DNA of 57,091 bases from a virus. Its lineage: Duplodnaviria > Heunggongvirae > Uroviricota > Caudoviricetes. The notes beneath the pieces are model-generated. The model was not told where the DNA came from and ran no database searches. It worked only from the letters and a program-made list of their open reading frames with translations. This document shows, in pieces, positions 7,473 through 56,101 of this stretch (the first letter of the stretch is position 1; each line of letters starts with the position of its first letter). The stretch is taken from IMG/VR virus record IMGVR_UViG_2534681675_000025, positions 1-57,091 of that record; one strand, given 5' to 3'. Position numbers and translations under genes: made by a program.

Positions 7473-8993
7473 TTATTCAGGCTTTAATTTATTGATAATA
7501 GAATCTACCATTTTAATGCCTGCCTCATTGACTATGACTGAATTGACTACTCTATCAAAATAGTCTTCTATATGGTGGGAAAATAGGAAAGCAGCACTTG
7601 ATGGTTTTTTGTTCTTTTCAACAGCAGATTGCAAGACTTCATGAGGCGGAATTTTAAACCTTTTGCATGATGCAATGAGATATTCAAACTCTTCAAATGA
7701 TAGACAAAAAATATTCTCTGTAGGGATATGATAGTTATGTTTAAACTTGTCATATATCTTATTCATCTCATCTTTAGCATAAGTATTAGCTAGGATACTA
7801 CCATTGCCTAAGAAAAGGTTTTTATATGTAATGCAAATGATATATGAGTTAGCCCTGAATGGAGCTATTATTCGCTCATTAGAGTATATTTCTCGATTAA
7901 CTTCGTGAGATTGTTCGATTGCTTTTAATACCGATTTCTTTATTTTTCCTGCAATATCCTCAGGGCGTAATGTTACCATGCCTTTTTGGTGTATCTCAAC
8001 GCCTTTAGCATCAATGAAAATATTTGCCTCAGTATGTGGAATGAAATAATCAACTACTTTATTATCTTTAGGTAGTCGTTCTTTAAGGTATTTTTCGTTA
8101 TGAAAATCAATTTCGCTTTCTTTTAGTATTAATTCCAGTGCATTTTCAAATACATTTCCAAAGCTATCCATGAACTTCTCGGCATCAGTTCTTCTTAAAA
8201 GATCATATATGAACGTCTGTATGCTTGTTGAAGTCAGTTGTGTGTGTATCTGAAAATACTCTGAACCTTTTTTTATTAATGGTTTTTCAAGGAAAGGTGA
8301 TGATGAGTAGTATTCAAGCAAAGGTTTATCATAGGTTTTTGATTTGCAAAATGTAGATAGTTCATTGTAATTTATTGATATTGCATCAAGAAATTTCTCA
8401 ATGGTATTTCTAGGAATGATGTCAAATAATATAGTAAATGTATCTACATTCATTTTTCTCACGGGATGCTCTTCTGTTATGTGAGTTATTAATATGTAAG
8501 ATAGCTTAAGAAAGTCTTCGATAGATACATTCGTGATAGTAAAAAAACTTGTCTTTATTTTATGGTTTTTTTCAAGTTCTGAAAATAGAAAGACTTGTCT
8601 GCTAATTGTGTTTAGAGCGTCAATTTTCTGGTAGATTCCTTGTTGGTATAGATTATTTCTAATGAAGAAATGCATGCCATTCTTCCTCTCAAGACCGATA
8701 GGAATAATGTTCAAGGTTTCATAAGTTTTTTGGAAGAGTTTTATTGCTTGATTTTTATCGAGGATTTTGAATTTTTTATTCTTGCCAGTTACTGACGCAG
8801 ACCACTTTAGACATAAATTAACAATCCAAGGCATGTGTCGTAACATGTGGATATTATCTTCAAATTTTTGTAAGTTATATTGCATACAGAATTCGATAAA
8901 TAAATCAGGGGAATAACCTTGGATTTCTGAACGAATAGCATCCATTCTTAACTTTGCAACCGCATCAGATTGAATATCTAATTTTTGAATCAC
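7473..8993 (-). CDS. Hypothetical protein, 506 aa, strongly AT-rich cargo gene between att remnant and int
   Basis: Long uninterrupted ORF; composition much more AT-rich than flanking phage genes; no motif I can recognise by eye. Confidence 0.7.
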   Translation of the reverse strand: MIQKLDIQSDAVAKLRMDAIRSEIQGYSPDLFIEFCMQYNLQKFEDNIHMLRHMPWIVNLCLKWSASVTGKNKKFKILDKNQAIKLFQKTYETLNIIPIGLERKNGMHFFIRNNLYQQGIYQKIDALNTISRQVFLFSELEKNHKIKTSFFTITNVSIEDFLKLSYILITHITEEHPVRKMNVDTFTILFDIIPRNTIEKFLDAISINYNELSTFCKSKTYDKPLLEYYSSSPFLEKPLIKKGSEYFQIHTQLTSTSIQTFIYDLLRRTDAEKFMDSFGNVFENALELILKESEIDFHNEKYLKERLPKDNKVVDYFIPHTEANIFIDAKGVEIHQKGMVTLRPEDIAGKIKKSVLKAIEQSHEVNREIYSNERIIAPFRANSYIICITYKNLFLGNGSILANTYAKDEMNKIYDKFKHNYHIPTENIFCLSFEEFEYLIASCKRFKIPPHEVLQSAVEKNKKPSSAAFLFSHHIEDYFDRVVNSVIVNEAGIKMVDSIINKLKPE

Positions 8994-48131: not shown

Positions 48132-49091
48132 TTACTCCTTGTCCATTGCGTACAGCCCATTAACCAGAGCAAACTGTGGCACCCCGTCCGCGATGAAAGT
48201 CGCATTAACTCCGCAGGCTTCGCGGATAGCGGGTGCCACAATCTCCGCCCCGCCACCGACAACCATCACCCGCCCGTAACCCGAAAAACCCGCCAGCGCG
48301 CGGATCACGCGTTGTTTCAGTGTTTCTTCCTTTTCACGAATAACCGCCATCAGGCTGTTGTAATGCGCGTCATTGTGGATGTGCTGGCGCAGCCAGGCTT
48401 CATCATGGCGATGTTCGATAATGGTATTGGCGATGTGGTGACTGGTACGCATACCGTTAGTGGCCATCACCGACAGTACGGCATCGGCCATCAGGGAAAC
48501 GCCTACGTGTGGATCGCAAAACACCTGGCTGATACCTGCCAGTTGTCCCTGAACCTTTGCCACATCCAGCGTGGTTCCGCCTAAATCCACAATCAGCAGG
48601 GATTCAAACGGACTCATGTCAGCCAGTGCTTTAAAGCCAGCCGGAATGGATTCAGGCATAACCCGCACGTTACGGATAGTGAATGCCTCACCGTTCTGGT
48701 ACTCCACCGGGCGCATAACGTTCGCTTTTTTGCGGTTGATGTTGGCCATGTCCGGCTGTGCGTTTGTGTCGAAATACTCGCTCAGTGGCAGGGTGACAAC
48801 CACATCCACCTCCTGTGGTGTGATGCCTGATTTGACCAGCGCGTGGTGAATGGCGATTACATTCACATCGCTGTACTGGTATTGCGTGTCGGTCGTCTGG
48901 ACAAAGCGATCGCTGACCGGATCAAAACCATAGCGCACGCCATCAAGCATGTAGTTCGCAGGCTGCGAGCCACCGAACGGCGCAGACCATTCCGACTTGA
49001 AGCTGTTCGGGCTGATGGCGTTGCGGCGTTCGCTGTTCTCAGTCCATGCCAGCTTGATGTTGGTGGAGCCGTCGTCGATACAAATTTTCAT
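48132..49091 (-). CDS. parM: ParM/StbA-like actin-type segregation ATPase
   Basis: 319 aa; MKICIDDGSTNIKLAW..., SDVNVIAIHHAL, IRNVRVMPESIPAG, LLIVDLGGTTLD, VMVVGGGAE match plasmid R1 ParM throughout. Confidence 0.85.
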   Translation of the reverse strand: MKICIDDGSTNIKLAWTENSERRNAISPNSFKSEWSAPFGGSQPANYMLDGVRYGFDPVSDRFVQTTDTQYQYSDVNVIAIHHALVKSGITPQEVDVVVTLPLSEYFDTNAQPDMANINRKKANVMRPVEYQNGEAFTIRNVRVMPESIPAGFKALADMSPFESLLIVDLGGTTLDVAKVQGQLAGISQVFCDPHVGVSLMADAVLSVMATNGMRTSHHIANTIIEHRHDEAWLRQHIHNDAHYNSLMAVIREKEETLKQRVIRALAGFSGYGRVMVVGGGAEIVAPAIREACGVNATFIADGVPQFALVNGLYAMDKE

Positions 49092-49120: not shown

Positions 49121-49231
49121 CGTTTACGGGGTTTTTAAATCCCGTTTTTGCCTGTTTTATGCGCGCTTCATATATCGCGGCGCGTTTTTTGCTCATTTAC
49201 GGGATTTGTGAATCCCGTTTCTGTCTGTTTT
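49121..49231. repeat. Two 38-bp repeat units each containing an 8-bp-arm palindrome (ACGGGRTT-N4-AATCCCGT), upstream of parM; candidate parC-like centromere
   Basis: Units at 49121-49158 and 49194-49231 (cgtttacggggtttttaaatcccgtttttgcctgtttt and catttacgggatttgtgaatcccgtttctgtctgtttt). Confidence 0.45.
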
Positions 49232-52020
49232 TTGTTTCCATTGGTCAGGCCACCCCGCAGCAGGTCTGCTTTGCGGCGGGCGCGTTCAGTGGTTTCACTG
49301 ATTCTCTGTGCGTGCTCTGCGTCACGGATGGCGCGCAGCATGTCAGAAAGCACGGTAACGGGTGTCTTCATGGTGTTCTGGTCTTGCTGAAGTGTGGATG
49401 CCAGGCGTGCGGCGGCTTCGGGGTCTGATGCCCCCAGCTGTTCCAGATAACTGGCGACCGGGTTATGGCGGATCTCCGTGCTGCTTACGCCGTGATTACG
49501 GCTCAGGCGCTGCCAGAGCTGCGTGATTCGGTTGTCCGGGCGGGTATCCGGTTTGCGTACAATTTCAAATCCCTGCGGTGCAATGATGCTGCCGTCAACG
49601 TACAGACTGCCGCCCCGTAACAGGTGCTGCATCTGCTGTTCACCGATATGCAGGCCGAGAGATTCAGCAGACTCCCGCCATTCTTTAGCGAGTAATTCGT
49701 GGTTATCAGGCAAAGGCCGCTGCTGTTTGCGGCTCTGTGTCCAGCTCTGCATTTCATCACTGCTGTTTTTTGCCTGTTTGTCACGAAGCGAACGCATCAG
49801 CGCCCGGCGTTCGTGCCGTTTCAGTGAGCGCATCCATTCGTTCACTTCAACGCCGTCAGGGAGCTGCGGCCACGGTGCTGGCCGTTCTTCCGGCTGTTCT
49901 GTCCCGTTGTTGTCCGTTTCCTGTACACGGGGACAGTTATTGCCACGAGTCCAAGGGGCGGCAGGGCCGCCCTGAAGGTCAAAACCATTTTCGCGGGCGC
50001 TGTCTTCCGCTTCCGGTTTACGTCTTACCAGCTTCCAGTTATCCGGATGCGTGCACACACGGGAGGATTCCCCGATGAATGGCGACCAGATCCCGTAAAT
50101 CTGTACACTCTGTTCGCCGTAATCGTTCAGCTCATCTGCGAGGTCGTAGGCTGTGCGAATCAGGTAGTCCTTGCGCGGAACAAGTACGCCACCCTGTTTT
50201 TCAATGTAGGTGGCAAAACATCCGGCATCAGCGGCAGCGAGTACCGCATCCATTGCGTCATCCTTCAGCCGTTGCGGGCCTTCCGGGTTGCGTGCCATCT
50301 GGCTGGCAAGGCGGCGCAGTTCACGCCACACCTGACGGGAGGGGATGCCAAAGAACTGGAACTGGCGGACCCGATGAAGGCGCGCCCAGCCGATGGCGCG
50401 CTCCACGCTCTCGGCCATTGATTTTCCGGTTTCGTGGTCAACGCGTGGTTTGCCCGTTTTCGGGTCGATTCCATCCACGGCGCGGCTGTCCAGGTTTTTT
50501 CCGATGTAGGTGGCGATGTAGCTGGTTGGCGTGCCTTTGGAGCCGTCGACGTACTCCACCTTAAAGCGCGGAGTAATATCATTGCCCAGCTCGTGGCGGT
50601 CTTCCTGAATGGCAATATCGCGGGTGATGGCCACGATGCTGTCGATTTCTTCCGGATGAGCAAAGACCATCATATGCCAGTGCACGGTGCCGTCATGGTG
50701 AGGCTCCACCGTGCGGATGCCATACCAGCGCAGGCCGTCGCGGTTCAGTTTTTTGCGGACCGCCGCAAAAAACGTGTTAACCAGGTAATCGCTGGAGTCG
50801 CGCATGGTGGCCCCGTTCCATTTGGGATTCGGATGACCGTTCTCTGTTGTGGCGTGGTATTTTGACGGGCAGGTGACAGTCAGAAACACCGCTTTGTCGC
50901 CACGGGCTTCGGCCAGAAGTTCCAGTCCCTTCATGGTGGCCATCATTTCTGCCTTACGGTGAACCGGGTTACTTACTCCCGCGTAATACACTGTCTCGAG
51001 ATCAATCGTGAAACCGTCTTCGTTTTCCAGTTCGAAGCTCTTCAGGAAGTCGCGGGTTTTCTCGCGCTGTGCGCGAAACTCGCTTAACGCGTCCTGGCTC
51101 AGATAGGGTGATGTTTTTCTGGAAACCAGACAGGCGGCGCGGAGTTGTTCTTCTCTCCACTCACAACGTAACAGCCACAGTTTGCGTTTCCACCAGTCCG
51201 CACAGGTCAGGCGAAGGATTGCGCCCGGCAGCAGTTCCGTATCCGGTTCGCTCTTGTTCAGGGCTTCGTAATGTGGCGGCATGATGTGCAGGCGTAATGC
51301 GATACGAGCCAGCATCCGGTAAGCCTTCAACATTACATCCATGGTCAGCTCGCCATCTCTGGCACCAAAGCCATCGCAGAGTGTTTCGAAGGTGCTGCTG
51401 AACATCGCCGCGGTCATGGTGGCCAGCGTCTGTATCTGGTGCTTGTTGAGCTGCGGCAGGTAAAGCAAATCGTCCAGGCGTTCGCGCCCGGCAAGGGAGC
51501 GATAACCCGGTGTCAGCCAGCGTCCGTCAGTGCGATCCAGACGTTCGAATATTTTGCGCAGGGTTCCGCGTGCATAGCGTTCCGCCTGCCAGCTCTTTTT
51601 GCCTTTCTGGCGATCGGCTTCCTGTTTTTTGCGCAGGAAAGAGAGGTGGCGGCTCAGTGGTTCACGCAGATAAACAGGTAGTGCCTTTAGTGTGGCAAAG
51701 GCACGGGCTACCGGGTCTTGTTCTGTTGCCCGGCGCTTACTGATGATGCTCTGTGCCAGCTTTTCACGCTGTCCGGCTTCCTCAAGGGATGCCATGAGTT
51801 TTTTACCCATGGCGGATTGTGCGAAAAAGGCTTCTTCCTTCGCTTCCTGTTCTTCCTGTGCCCTTTTGTCCGCCTCAAGGTAGTAACGGATGGCGCGTTG
51901 CAGGTCGGTTTCAGTTTCCTGCCTGCGCTCCGTAAATCTGGCCGGATCAATGGCTGGCCGTGGTTCATTCCAGCTCCATGCAAACTCACTCATGGCTGGT
52001 ATCCCGTCACGCGCTGCCAC
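49168..52020 (-). CDS. A: Replication initiation endonuclease (P2 gene A family), prophage 2
   Basis: 950 aa; conserved TPTSYIATYIGKNLD and HWHMMVF regions shared with prophage 1 A; long C-terminal extension. Confidence 0.9.
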   Translation of the reverse strand: MAARDGIPAMSEFAWSWNEPRPAIDPARFTERRQETETDLQRAIRYYLEADKRAQEEQEAKEEAFFAQSAMGKKLMASLEEAGQREKLAQSIISKRRATEQDPVARAFATLKALPVYLREPLSRHLSFLRKKQEADRQKGKKSWQAERYARGTLRKIFERLDRTDGRWLTPGYRSLAGRERLDDLLYLPQLNKHQIQTLATMTAAMFSSTFETLCDGFGARDGELTMDVMLKAYRMLARIALRLHIMPPHYEALNKSEPDTELLPGAILRLTCADWWKRKLWLLRCEWREEQLRAACLVSRKTSPYLSQDALSEFRAQREKTRDFLKSFELENEDGFTIDLETVYYAGVSNPVHRKAEMMATMKGLELLAEARGDKAVFLTVTCPSKYHATTENGHPNPKWNGATMRDSSDYLVNTFFAAVRKKLNRDGLRWYGIRTVEPHHDGTVHWHMMVFAHPEEIDSIVAITRDIAIQEDRHELGNDITPRFKVEYVDGSKGTPTSYIATYIGKNLDSRAVDGIDPKTGKPRVDHETGKSMAESVERAIGWARLHRVRQFQFFGIPSRQVWRELRRLASQMARNPEGPQRLKDDAMDAVLAAADAGCFATYIEKQGGVLVPRKDYLIRTAYDLADELNDYGEQSVQIYGIWSPFIGESSRVCTHPDNWKLVRRKPEAEDSARENGFDLQGGPAAPWTRGNNCPRVQETDNNGTEQPEERPAPWPQLPDGVEVNEWMRSLKRHERRALMRSLRDKQAKNSSDEMQSWTQSRKQQRPLPDNHELLAKEWRESAESLGLHIGEQQMQHLLRGGSLYVDGSIIAPQGFEIVRKPDTRPDNRITQLWQRLSRNHGVSSTEIRHNPVASYLEQLGASDPEAAARLASTLQQDQNTMKTPVTVLSDMLRAIRDAEHAQRISETTERARRKADLLRGGLTNGNKKQTETGFTNPVNEQKTRRDI

Positions 52021-52379
52021 TCCTGCGAGAAGATGGCGGAAAGGCGGTTAAATTCAGCGGTGTATTCACTCAGCGAGGCACACCCGCCAGCAGTGCGATG
52101 CGCCAGCATTGCCGCAAATACGGAGGCCGGGGAGTCATGATACGCCAGCAGTGATTCGCCGTGTGGTGTCAGGCAGTGCAACGCCAGCCCGTGTGGTGTG
52201 AAATCCACGCGGTAGCAGTCGTCTACTGTGAAATAAAGGGTGTCCGCATTCTCCGGTTTTGTGGTGCGTGCTCTGTTGTCACGACCACGGATGTAGAGAT
52301 CAAATAATCCCTGAAGAATGGGAGCCAGACGGGTGTCCTGTGTGCGCACCCATCTTGTGAAGTCATGAGCGTCAATCAT
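51990..52379 (-). CDS. Hypothetical early protein
   Basis: 129-aa ORF immediately upstream of A. Confidence 0.5.
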   Translation of the reverse strand: MIDAHDFTRWVRTQDTRLAPILQGLFDLYIRGRDNRARTTKPENADTLYFTVDDCYRVDFTPHGLALHCLTPHGESLLAYHDSPASVFAAMLAHRTAGGCASLSEYTAEFNRLSAIFSQEWQRVTGYQP

Positions 52380-52451
52380 GCTGCAATTCTCTTTACTACA
52401 GGTGTGCGAAGGCCTCCCGCCGCAAGGTGCAGGAAAGGCCTGGAACAGGAA

Positions 52452-52682
52452 TTAATGGGGTTTGTTTTGCTGCTGAAAGAGCTGCTGAAGCTCGCGCAGA
52501 TCATCCGCCAGATAGCTGAAAACAGCGGATGAATAGAGGTTTGAAAGTTCGCAGCTACGCTCATGCAGCATATTGATGTGCATGATTTTAGCGACGCGGA
52601 ATGCGCGGGAAAGTCTGCGGTTGATTTCAGTCTGGATGTGACGACGCTCCGCGATAGCGCGGTGCTGTTTGCGGTTTGCCAT
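52452..52682 (-). CDS. Hypothetical early protein
   Basis: 76-aa basic ORF. Confidence 0.45.
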   Translation of the reverse strand: MANRKQHRAIAERRHIQTEINRRLSRAFRVAKIMHINMLHERSCELSNLYSSAVFSYLADDLRELQQLFQQQNKPH

Positions 52683-53007
52683 GGTGTTTGGCCTCTTCGT
52701 TTGTGAGTTTTTGGATACTCACCAACCAGAGTTGAGAATCTCGGGGTGGCGAGACGTACGGGGTTCTCAACACCGGCAAACGAAGAAACCGGCCCGACCG
52801 AAGTCGGCCCCGTACGCCCCACCATAATTCGTGTGCGAAAAAGACGTGGCAATACAGTACGCACAAAAAAACCGCTGGCGCGGTTGTGCGCTTCGTTTGT
52901 CAGCAGGTTGAGAATCCCGGCACCCGTTTTATGAGGTGCAGCAGAAATGTAACCTGACTGATTGCGGCATGGCAAGCGGTTTTTTTGTGTGTGCATGCTC
53001 TGATTTC

Positions 53008-53307
53008 TTACTGGTTCAGAAAAAAATCAAAAACCTTGTCAATGCGTTGCAACAGCTCTTGCTGTATTGCTTCCGGCGTTTCCGGTTCGCCTGGCGCCTC
53101 CAATGTCGCGCAGAAATCAGCGATTTCATGATGGAGCGTCAGGCGAATGGCAGGAGCCGTGGTTCTGGCGTGCTCCAGCTCATCCAGCAATGCCAGCACC
53201 GCAGACGGCGAGAGCATTGCGCGAAATGCCAGTAATTTTTGAGGTGTTGCCATTCGTTGCAGGGCAAATGCCAGTTCGCGTAGCTTCTGGTGGTTGATGG
53301 TGCTCAT
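53008..53307 (-). CDS. Hypothetical early protein
   Basis: 99-aa ORF. Confidence 0.5.
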   Translation of the reverse strand: MSTINHQKLRELAFALQRMATPQKLLAFRAMLSPSAVLALLDELEHARTTAPAIRLTLHHEIADFCATLEAPGEPETPEAIQQELLQRIDKVFDFFLNQ

Positions 53308-53570
53308 GTTCTGGCTTCCTTCAGTAGCTGGTTAAACATGTGAGTCAGTGGATTGCTACACCCGAACGGCATCGGGTTTACGTGGTAAGAAGCCTGGCCT
53401 CCAGTTTTGCGAGCGCGACCACCTGTGCTGCGGTTTGTTCTGATGACTAAGCCGCCGCGCCAAAGTTGGCGTAACTCAGCATTAATGGCTGTGGTTGGAG
53501 TATTCAGTGCTGCTGCGATTTCTCCGCCGCTACAACCCGGATGGGTAGCGATGTAGTCCAGAATGGTCAT
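53304..53570 (-). CDS. Small winged-helix-like DNA-binding protein (hypothetical)
   Basis: 88 aa; MTILDYIATHPGCSGGEIAAAL... resembles a MarR/wHTH N-terminus. Confidence 0.5.
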   Translation of the reverse strand: MTILDYIATHPGCSGGEIAAALNTPTTAINAELRQLWRGGLVIRTNRSTGGRARKTGGQASYHVNPMPFGCSNPLTHMFNQLLKEART

Positions 53571-55310: not shown

Positions 55311-55637
55311 TCATGCAGCAAAATTAAGAAAGCCTAATCCCAAATCTTCCGCCAGCTTCTTAGCTTTATTAAGCCAGTGGTTGCGCCAATCTTTACGCTC
55401 AGGAGGAAGCTGTTTCGTTGCGTCATAGACCATTTCGAGCCACTCGTTCCATAAGATGAGGAGGCGGCGTGAACTTCCTTCCTCGCCTAAAACTTCACGC
55501 TCAGTAGCCAGAGGGATGAGCCGACGTTCCACCAACTTTCTTACGGCTGATTCGGTCTTGCCCGTGCGGCGGGCAAATTCATCGACGGTGATGGGGTCTG
55601 GGATCTTAAACAATGCCCTCAATAGTTCTTCATTCAT
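55311..55637 (-). CDS. cox: Cox-like excisionase/transcriptional regulator
   Basis: First gene of the early operon, divergent from C; start ATG 55637 after GGGAG; 108 aa. Confidence 0.6.
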   Translation of the reverse strand: MNEELLRALFKIPDPITVDEFARRTGKTESAVRKLVERRLIPLATEREVLGEEGSSRRLLILWNEWLEMVYDATKQLPPERKDWRNHWLNKAKKLAEDLGLGFLNFAA

Positions 55638-55732
55638 GTGATAATCTCCCTGTTTGGGGTATTTCTTGCGACGGATGCCCCAAATCAAACTCATTTGTAT
55701 AAACATTAATACAGACGTTGGAGAATTGCAAC
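55638..55732. promoter_or_regulatory. Divergent early/repressor promoter-operator region (Pe/Pc-like)
   Basis: 95-bp gap between divergent cox and C; inverted repeat tttgggg...ccccaaa. Confidence 0.45.
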
Positions 55733-56035
55733 ATGCGTATGACTATTGGAGAGCGCATAAAAATCATGCGTGAAAGCGAGAGACTTACTAGCCTCCCGGA
55801 TACAGCAAAAATGCTTGGTTTAAACCGTGATGCTCTGTGGAGATATGAAAGCGGTAAAACTATCCCTAATGCTGAAGTAATTGAGCAAATACTAAACAAC
55901 CCCAGATTTGAGAAATATGCGTTGTGGTTTATGACTGGAAAAATTGCGCCTGAATCCGGGCAGATAGCTCCGGCTCTCGCACACTATGGGCAAGAGCCAA
56001 CGGACTTACCCCCATCCGAAAGGAAAATTGGTTAA
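55733..56035 (+). CDS. C: P2 C-type immunity repressor
   Basis: About 100 aa; C-terminal YALWFMTGKIAPESGQIAPALAHYGQ nearly matches P2 C (YTLWFMTNQIAPESGQIAPALAHFGQ) as recalled. Confidence 0.8.
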   Translation: MRMTIGERIKIMRESERLTSLPDTAKMLGLNRDALWRYESGKTIPNAEVIEQILNNPRFEKYALWFMTGKIAPESGQIAPALAHYGQEPTDLPPSERKIG

Positions 56036-56101
56036 CCCTTTATTATTCTTACGTTTTACAAACTGGAAATGTCTTTCCTCGTTTCACCGGAGGGCTTGCC
56101 A

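Follow-up and report, generated by a model that had tools for sequence, protein, structure and literature searches.

A probable IsrK-C4-type RNA cassette in a non-coding gap of the early operon of a P88-like Escherichia coli prophage

The gap and its operon setting

What fills a stretch of a phage early operon that seems to be empty? The window (the whole stretch of viral DNA that was analysed, 57,091 nucleotides) contains a P88-like (P2-type) E. coli prophage, whose minus-strand early operon has a non-coding gap at 52683..53007. The original prediction had described 325 bp of non-coding DNA inside the early operon, and this was borne out by the ends of the flanking ORFs and by two Rfam matches. 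The upstream ORF (53008..53307, minus strand) ends at 53008 and the downstream ORF (52452..52682, minus strand) opens with an ATG at 52682. The accompanying statement that the gap holds no credible ORF was only partly right: a 206-aa ORF (52376..52996, minus strand) does cross the gap, although the evidence presented below speaks against its coding. The genes around the gap are as follows.

Starts at 56069, plus strand: integrase
55718..56035, plus strand: repressor, a 105-aa helix-turn-helix protein
55311..55706, minus strand: Cox-like protein, in the early operon, which diverges from the repressor and integrase
Between the Cox-like and MarR-type genes, minus strand: several small ORFs
53304..53570, minus strand: MarR-type winged-helix protein
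53008..53307, minus strand: Ead/Ea22-like 99-aa ORF, directly upstream of the gap
52452..52682, minus strand: 76-aa ORF, directly downstream of the gap
51990..52379, minus strand: 129-aa ORF without a family match, between the epsilon-like (76-aa) gene and gpA
49168..52020, minus strand: P2-type replication protein gpA, an HUH nuclease (PF05840, 433 bits)

The repressor was 52% identical to P2 C (E = 5e-34), and the nearest named phages were P88-like members of Xuanwuvirus (Peduoviridae), at 90-93% identity. A 361-nt query covering the gap (52660..53020) found a 100% match in E. coli strain TUM1880, and sequences resembling it were present in 1184 of 5426 complete E. coli genomes, or about one fifth. 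The P2 early region contained nothing comparable to the cassette described here. The position of the 129-aa ORF is a variable slot; the ORF was found in only 59 of 191 related loci, and other relatives have a different ORF there, as in locus L001 (4615..4980). A tRNA scan of the whole window found no tRNA gene. The segment from 1 to about 32000, called prophage 1 in the original prediction, resembled phage structural and other prophage genes and had no match to C4 or isrK at the Rfam gathering thresholds. P88 has been recovered after mitomycin C treatment, a result quoted without an uninduced control that does not by itself show inducibility.

Two RNA genes and six recognition sites

When the whole window was scanned against Rfam at the curated thresholds, two families and no others were matched, once each, along the whole model and on the minus strand of the gap. 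The first was isrK (RF01394), at 52939..52865; its 62.0 bits exceed the gathering score of 50, and the match has E = 6.5e-11 and spans model positions 1-77 of 77. The second was C4 (RF01695), at 52829..52742, which reached 79.2 bits where the gathering score is 45, with E = 6.7e-14 and a span of 1-87 of 87 model positions. Both E values were computed over the whole window. An Rfam search had been proposed in the original prediction as one check on the gap, and with both families above their gathering scores, the first of its three options, a small regulatory RNA, was substantiated in the form of two RNA genes, isrK and C4. The features of the gap are listed in the direction of transcription.

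52972..52992, minus strand: upstream A-rich arm (ACACACAAAAAAACCGCUUGC), complementary to the terminator 3' arm and U run (52879-52859)
52946..52975, minus strand: predicted sigma-70 promoter of the IsrK-like RNA (TTGCCA 52975-52970, 18-nt spacer, TACATT 52951-52946)
52865..52939, minus strand: IsrK / P4-SeqA-like small RNA (Rfam RF01394, terminator scan, covariation of a1/b1 with C4)
52939-52920, minus strand: IsrK hairpin 1
52919-52904, minus strand: IsrK hairpin 2, which bears site a1
Core 52914-52907, minus strand: site a1, inside IsrK, complementary to a' of C4
52899-52891, minus strand: site b1, inside IsrK, complementary to b' of C4
52885-52870, minus strand: IsrK terminator hairpin, then a U run (U7) to 52863
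52742..52829, minus strand: C4 / P4-CI-like antisense RNA (Rfam RF01695)
52824-52808 with 52763-52747, minus strand: C4 outer stem, 17 bp
52807-52794, minus strand: C4 hairpin 1, CCGAC-UUCG-GUCGG, with a UUCG loop
52793-52772, minus strand: C4 hairpin 2, with recognition loop b' at 52788-52777
52771-52759, minus strand: C4 recognition segment a' (junction)
52731..52746, core 52738-52731, minus strand: site a2, downstream, complementary to a' (inverted repeat I2)
52722-52703, minus strand: small hairpin before b2 (predicted fold)
52703-52692, minus strand: site b2, downstream, complementary to b' (I6, 10 nt, 100% complementary)

The IsrK-like RNA has, in silico, the promoter and Rho-independent terminator of its own by which isrK is recognised. 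Transcription is predicted to start at about 52939, where the isrK model has its position 1, and the 3' end of the model is the minus-strand, terminator-like hairpin with a T-run that the original prediction had noticed, which was located at 52885..52870 with its U run extending to 52863. Both promoter hexamers were invariant in 47 distinct relatives, and the terminator was invariant or nearly so. Despite the presence of a1 and b1 sites, the c4-a1b1 model (RF03163) found no match here even at E values up to 10.

The A-rich arm and the terminator region form a long-range inverted repeat, I1, in which an A7-CCGC arm pairs with 52879-52859 (21 nt, 90% complementary). The arm is the left edge of the conserved cassette: homology among relatives that have different upstream genes begins there. 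Neither arm varied among the 47 alleles, and a transcript initiated upstream has the I1 helix instead of the terminator hairpin in its minimum-energy fold. The A-rich arm may be a promoter UP element, part of a long-range or processing helix, or a modulator of termination. A role of I1 as an anti-terminator, while favoured thermodynamically, was not adopted: the arms do not vary, and the A tract could simply be an UP element. By eye, P4 had no obvious equivalent of I1.

The C4 segment folded with an energy of -48.6 kcal/mol (z = -4.7), which none of 200 shuffled sequences equalled. Its minimum-energy fold is the family consensus, a closing stem round two hairpins with the b' loop and the a' junction unpaired, and the conserved AAUUAUGG leader is present. 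The perfect hairpin reported in the original prediction was found again as CCGAC-UUCG-GUCGG at 52807-52794, where it is internal hairpin 1 of C4, although it had not been recognised as such. A second promoter-like site precedes C4 (52852..52824, minus strand; TTGCCA-17-AATTAT), and its -10 element coincides with the conserved AAUUAU leader. This site is probably not a functional promoter; its -35 element varies (TTGCCA or TCGCCA) and its start would fall inside the C4 stem.

The layout of complementarity to C4 accounts for the repeats. The imperfect inverted repeat of the original prediction was recovered as I2 (52726-52743 / 52759-52776) and its third copy at 52907-52920 (D3; also I4, 13 nt, 92% complementary to 52759-52771); on the C4 layout the inverted repeat is a' with a2 and the third copy is a1. 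A second triad, CAAACGAAG, had been missed; its copies lie at 52777-52786, 52891-52899 and 52694-52703 (I6, I7 and D1). Also unrecognised was that all features read on the minus strand and that the repeats are an antisense RNA and its target sites. Both a' and b' are complementary to targets on the same transcript, the downstream one at a ribosome-binding site, as is characteristic of C4: the Shine-Dalgarno sequence of the 76-aa gene, AAGAGG (52697-52692), lies within b2 and 9 nt ahead of that gene's ATG at 52682. All six recognition sites in the window were mutually cognate, with duplex energies from -11.9 to -21.7 kcal/mol; the energy was -14.4 kcal/mol for a'-a2 and -21.7 kcal/mol for b'-b2. 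In the minimum-energy fold of the long transcript, a1 and b1 are paired with a' and b'.

To compare the cassette across relatives, 85 related loci were gathered by means of the 76-aa protein and further loci by means of a C4 backbone pattern. We compared 53 distinct gap sequences, and alignment A1 was made from 47 distinct sequences. In both sets variation clustered in the six recognition sites, which changed together. The pairs in the 47-sequence alignment were as follows.

b' with b1: 9 pairs, 7 with compensatory changes, 100% of cells paired
b' with b2: 12 pairs, 7 with compensatory changes
a' with a1: 8 pairs, 4 with compensatory changes
a' with a2: 8 pairs, 4 with compensatory changes
C4 outer stem: 17 pairs, 3 with compensatory changes, 99.9% paired
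C4 hairpin 1: 5 pairs, 2 with compensatory changes

As a control, the partners were slid by 1-3 columns, and pairing fell from 96-98% to about 40%. Cognate duplexes exceeded non-cognate ones in stability by 5-8 kcal/mol (for b'-b2, means of -19.9 and -11.5 kcal/mol, respectively). On the larger set of loci the longest complementary run proved too crude to separate cognate from non-cognate sites, and duplex energies and pair counts were used. The C4 stems were invariant or nearly so in the 47 relatives. Taken with the conserved promoter hexamers and terminator, and with the compensatory changes in the 47 alleles, this points to ongoing selection on pairing. The check suggested in the original prediction, structure prediction and covariance across relatives, thus gave the consensus C4 fold and compensatory pairs.

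The first set of loci contained 5 alleles of a' and 14 of b', and 190 loci contained 6 and 14, in 21 combinations. The allele pair of the window is one of the less common (7 of 86 sequences, counting the window and the 85 loci). Among genomes with two cassettes the alleles differed in 6 of 8 pairs and were identical in 2, which, with 8 pairs only, is not distinguishable from random. An epsilon-like gene lay downstream in 191 of 191 loci with this C4 backbone; P2-type gpA was present in those with enough flanking sequence, and P4 alpha primase in none of the 191. One of the relatives, L005 (NZ_JBQPOM010000071.1), is labelled Vagococcus sp., from a Gram-positive genus, and carries a P88-like cassette that is 82% identical at the protein level; it is most likely a contaminating or mislabelled enterobacterial contig.

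Relation to known immunity regions and proposed mode of action

We conclude, with a probability of roughly 85%, that the gap is a cassette of the IsrK-C4 type, which confers immunity and controls an anti-repressor by means of RNA, as in P1/P7, P4 and Gifsy-1. The 76-aa gene is presumed to be the gene that it regulates. The 76-aa protein matched the Pfam family Derepression (PF25738) with 29.3 bits against a cut-off of 27; the family was modelled on P4 epsilon, which scores 170 bits. In a direct BLASTP comparison the protein was 29% identical to P4 epsilon (E = 2e-8). Repressors of the P2-C type are the class bound by P4 epsilon. Since the repressor of this prophage is of that type, the product of the 76-aa gene is most simply read from its sequence as an anti-repressor for its own or related prophages.

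Both Rfam families recurred in the immunity region of P4, with order and strand unchanged, isrK (seqA) at 60.8 bits and C4 (CI RNA) at 74.9 bits; against the c4-a1b1 model (RF03163) the P4 region reached 44.1 with a threshold of 46.7. There too the antisense RNA is flanked by upstream and downstream pairs of complementary sites, the second downstream site abuts a ribosome-binding site, and epsilon, the helper derepression protein, is encoded further along the same operon, before the replication gene, as its homologue is here. The P4 order is P_LE, seqA, CI RNA and seqC, then kil/eta, epsilon and alpha. Four differences were evident. The epsilon-like gene directly follows the cassette here, whereas in P4 other reading frames lie between seqC and epsilon. 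The replication gene is a P2-type gpA (PF05840) rather than the alpha primase. The cassette is in the middle of the early operon and not at its start. Finally, P4 is a satellite, whereas the element here is a complete phage of the P2 type that encodes a C-type repressor and Cox of its own. P4 satellites are recognised by an alpha primase and the lack of structural genes, and what was found here was gpA, Cox and a C-type repressor.

The C4 RNA of P1/P7 is the founding member of RF01695, and in P1 it is an antisense RNA that is cut from a transcript of its own target and controls an anti-repressor. The immI region of P1/P7 (a1 b1, c4, a2 b2, icd, ant) and the gap share the layout a1b1, c4(a'b'), a2b2, and they share its logic: two recognition segments, target copies on both sides and a downstream copy at the ribosome-binding site. 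In P1/P7, icd and ant lie downstream of c4, whereas the ORFs downstream of the cassette here matched the Derepression family only, or nothing. Unlike in P1/P7, the a1/b1 region here is a terminated small RNA of the isrK type without a match to the c4-a1b1 model. The wiring thus differs from both the P1 and the P4 models. Differences in the recognition sites are said, in work of 1990 by Citron and Schuster, to cause the heteroimmunity of P1 and P7.

The third relative is the isrK, orf45 (STnc1160), anrP locus of Salmonella Gifsy-1, with which the IsrK family is held in common. In Gifsy-1, IsrK is transcribed from a promoter of its own, ends at a leaky terminator and is complementary to RNA just downstream; translation of the region that follows (orf45) is coupled to anrP, with IsrK as an activator. 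The alternative cis fold of the long transcript here resembles the inactive 'structure A' of Gifsy-1, and an anti-repressor-type gene is controlled there, as is proposed here, although Gifsy-1 is lambdoid and the present phage P2-type. In Gifsy-1 the first AUG of orf45 is at nucleotide 107 of the isrK transcript. This is probably the position equivalent to the AUG at 52825 in the window, so orf45 may be a reading of a C4-like RNA. Published work equates IsrK with seqA and C4 with CI RNA, and an 'IsrK-C4 immunity system' has been described in P4, P1, P7, N15 and lambdoid prophages. In the record of an Stx phage, the homologous stretch is annotated 'isrK Hfq binding RNA | C4 antisense RNA'.

By analogy with these systems, the cassette most likely keeps the anti-repressor-like gene and the replication gene off. 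Its promoter would be constitutive and most transcripts would end at the terminator, yielding the short IsrK. Transcripts that read through, together with those from the early promoter, would carry the C4 precursor, which would be processed to an RNA of about 80 nt, presumably by RNase P as in P1 and P4. C4 would pair with a2 and b2 on any transcript of the same alleles and block translation of the epsilon-like gene; the loss of translation would bring about Rho-dependent termination and lower the expression of later genes, replication gene A included. By competing for C4, as a decoy in trans or through the alternative fold in cis, the a1 and b1 sites of IsrK would set a threshold. The target of the epsilon-like protein would be a P2-C-type repressor, that of its own or a related prophage, which it would inactivate; its release would commit the prophage to lytic growth. 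The a' and b' alleles would define the specificity of immunity. We infer the promoter, read-through, processing and Rho-dependent polarity of the cassette alike, and since IsrK is an activator in Gifsy-1, its effect here may be of either sign.

The cassette is a real, intact and conserved instance of an RNA immunity system that has already been described, and not a new kind. Modestly new are the P2-type context, the epsilon homologue directly under C4, the rich series of alleles and a probable mis-annotation as protein. The seemingly empty stretch would be explained as a second, RNA-based layer of the lysis-lysogeny decision, placed before the anti-repressor-like and replication genes, and the allele series offers natural compensatory mutants for work on antisense specificity and heteroimmunity in P2-like phages.

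Alternative readings of the gap

A cassette of this kind might act mainly between elements. The resident C4 would then serve as a defence by silencing P2-like phages or P4-like satellites with matching alleles, and the epsilon-like protein would be aimed at the repressors of other P2-type prophages and not at its own. The cassette is homologous to the immunity region and epsilon of the P4 satellite, its recognition alleles are highly diverse and have been reassorted in 21 combinations, and a defensive role has been proposed in the literature for lambdoid prophages. We nevertheless consider this unlikely as the main function: all 191 loci with this C4 backbone were P2-type, with gpA and without the P4 alpha primase, the alleles of P4 itself were unlike all those seen here, and the genomes with two copies gave no signal beyond random (6 of 8 differed). 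In a related and rather speculative reading, which we would not favour at present, a helper-type P2-like phage carries the cassette of its satellite P4, and the alleles (5-6 of a' by 14 of b') are the record of a phage-satellite arms race. If true, resident C4 would silence invaders with matching alleles and epsilon-like proteins would derepress the C-type repressors of rivals.

It is very unlikely that the gap does no more than divide the early operon, as a passive intrinsic terminator or attenuator, with the C4-like sequence a decayed remnant that has no function in trans. A terminator-like hairpin with a U run does lie inside the operon, but the six sites of the window are mutually cognate, the promoter hexamers, C4 stems and terminator are conserved, and compensatory changes occur across 47 alleles. 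The attenuator offered as a second option in the original prediction was right to this extent only, that the IsrK terminator is inside the operon and that systems of the P4 kind act by premature termination.

We regard it as highly improbable that the gap is protein-coding, with the 206-aa ORF (52376..52996, minus strand) a real gene and the repeats incidental. In its favour, the frame stays open in the window and in 27 of 47 relatives, the ORF has a weak match to Pfam PF10554 (Phage_ASH), and both NC_049391 and the PGAP annotation of some genomes list it as 'Ash family protein' or 'transcriptional regulator'. The match to PF10554 is its only Pfam match, however, and at 20.3 bits it is under the cut-off of 26. 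The residues matched (16-87) correspond exactly to the two RNA genes. In P4, an obsolete CDS named 'cI protein' covers the CI RNA gene and matches the same family with 59.7 bits, and the P4 immunity factor is an RNA. The ORF also lacks codon-position periodicity (entropy of 0.27, 0.30 and 0.29 at the three positions, without a third-position excess) and, in a different frame, runs over the conserved 76-aa gene. It is broken in 20 of the 47 relatives, having no start codon in 17 and stop codons in 3. The protein reading was rejected on the sub-threshold Pfam match, the absent periodicity, the missing starts and the 'cI protein' precedent of P4. In P88-like phages, ORFs that lie over isrK and C4 match PF10554 weakly. 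The ORFs concerned in the matches to this family are at these positions.

52376..52996, minus strand: the window
8168..8584, minus strand: locus L086
4974..5591, minus strand: locus L002

The annotations 'Ash family protein' and 'transcriptional regulator' are probably wrong here, being translations of RNA genes, and PF10554 itself may be partly spurious; a lesser possibility is that the family is largely a translation artefact of C4/CI RNA genes. The stretch is better annotated as isrK and C4. A conserved AUG at the 5' end of C4 (52825, minus strand) is in frame with the 206-aa ORF and has no Shine-Dalgarno sequence before it; the frame that it opens continues, out of frame, over the 76-aa gene.

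The last option of the original prediction was a protein-binding site array, in which a DNA-binding protein would recognise the repeats as, for example, an operator or a site of the partition or origin kind. It is almost certainly wrong. Three copies of a 13-14-nt motif and three of a 9-10-nt motif do lie within 230 bp, and DNA-binding proteins are encoded close by (MarR-type, Cox-like, C-type repressor). In each triad, however, the outer two copies are always matched by a middle copy in reverse-complement form, which lies in an unpaired part of a conserved RNA fold, the Rfam structural matches speak against a protein-binding array, and the sites vary to many unrelated sequences (5-6 and 14 alleles) with compensatory changes that keep RNA-RNA complementarity and no fixed consensus, which argues for RNA pairing.

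One further observation concerns the other end of the replication gene. In P88-like phages, ParM-type plasmid segregation/partition genes adjoin the replication gene, downstream of gpA (L001, 431..1709; L002, 431..1706), and an integrase is also present. In the window a 319-aa ORF (about 48132..49091, minus strand) is in the equivalent place. The partition genes beside the replication gene suggest an optional plasmid-like state of P88-like phages.
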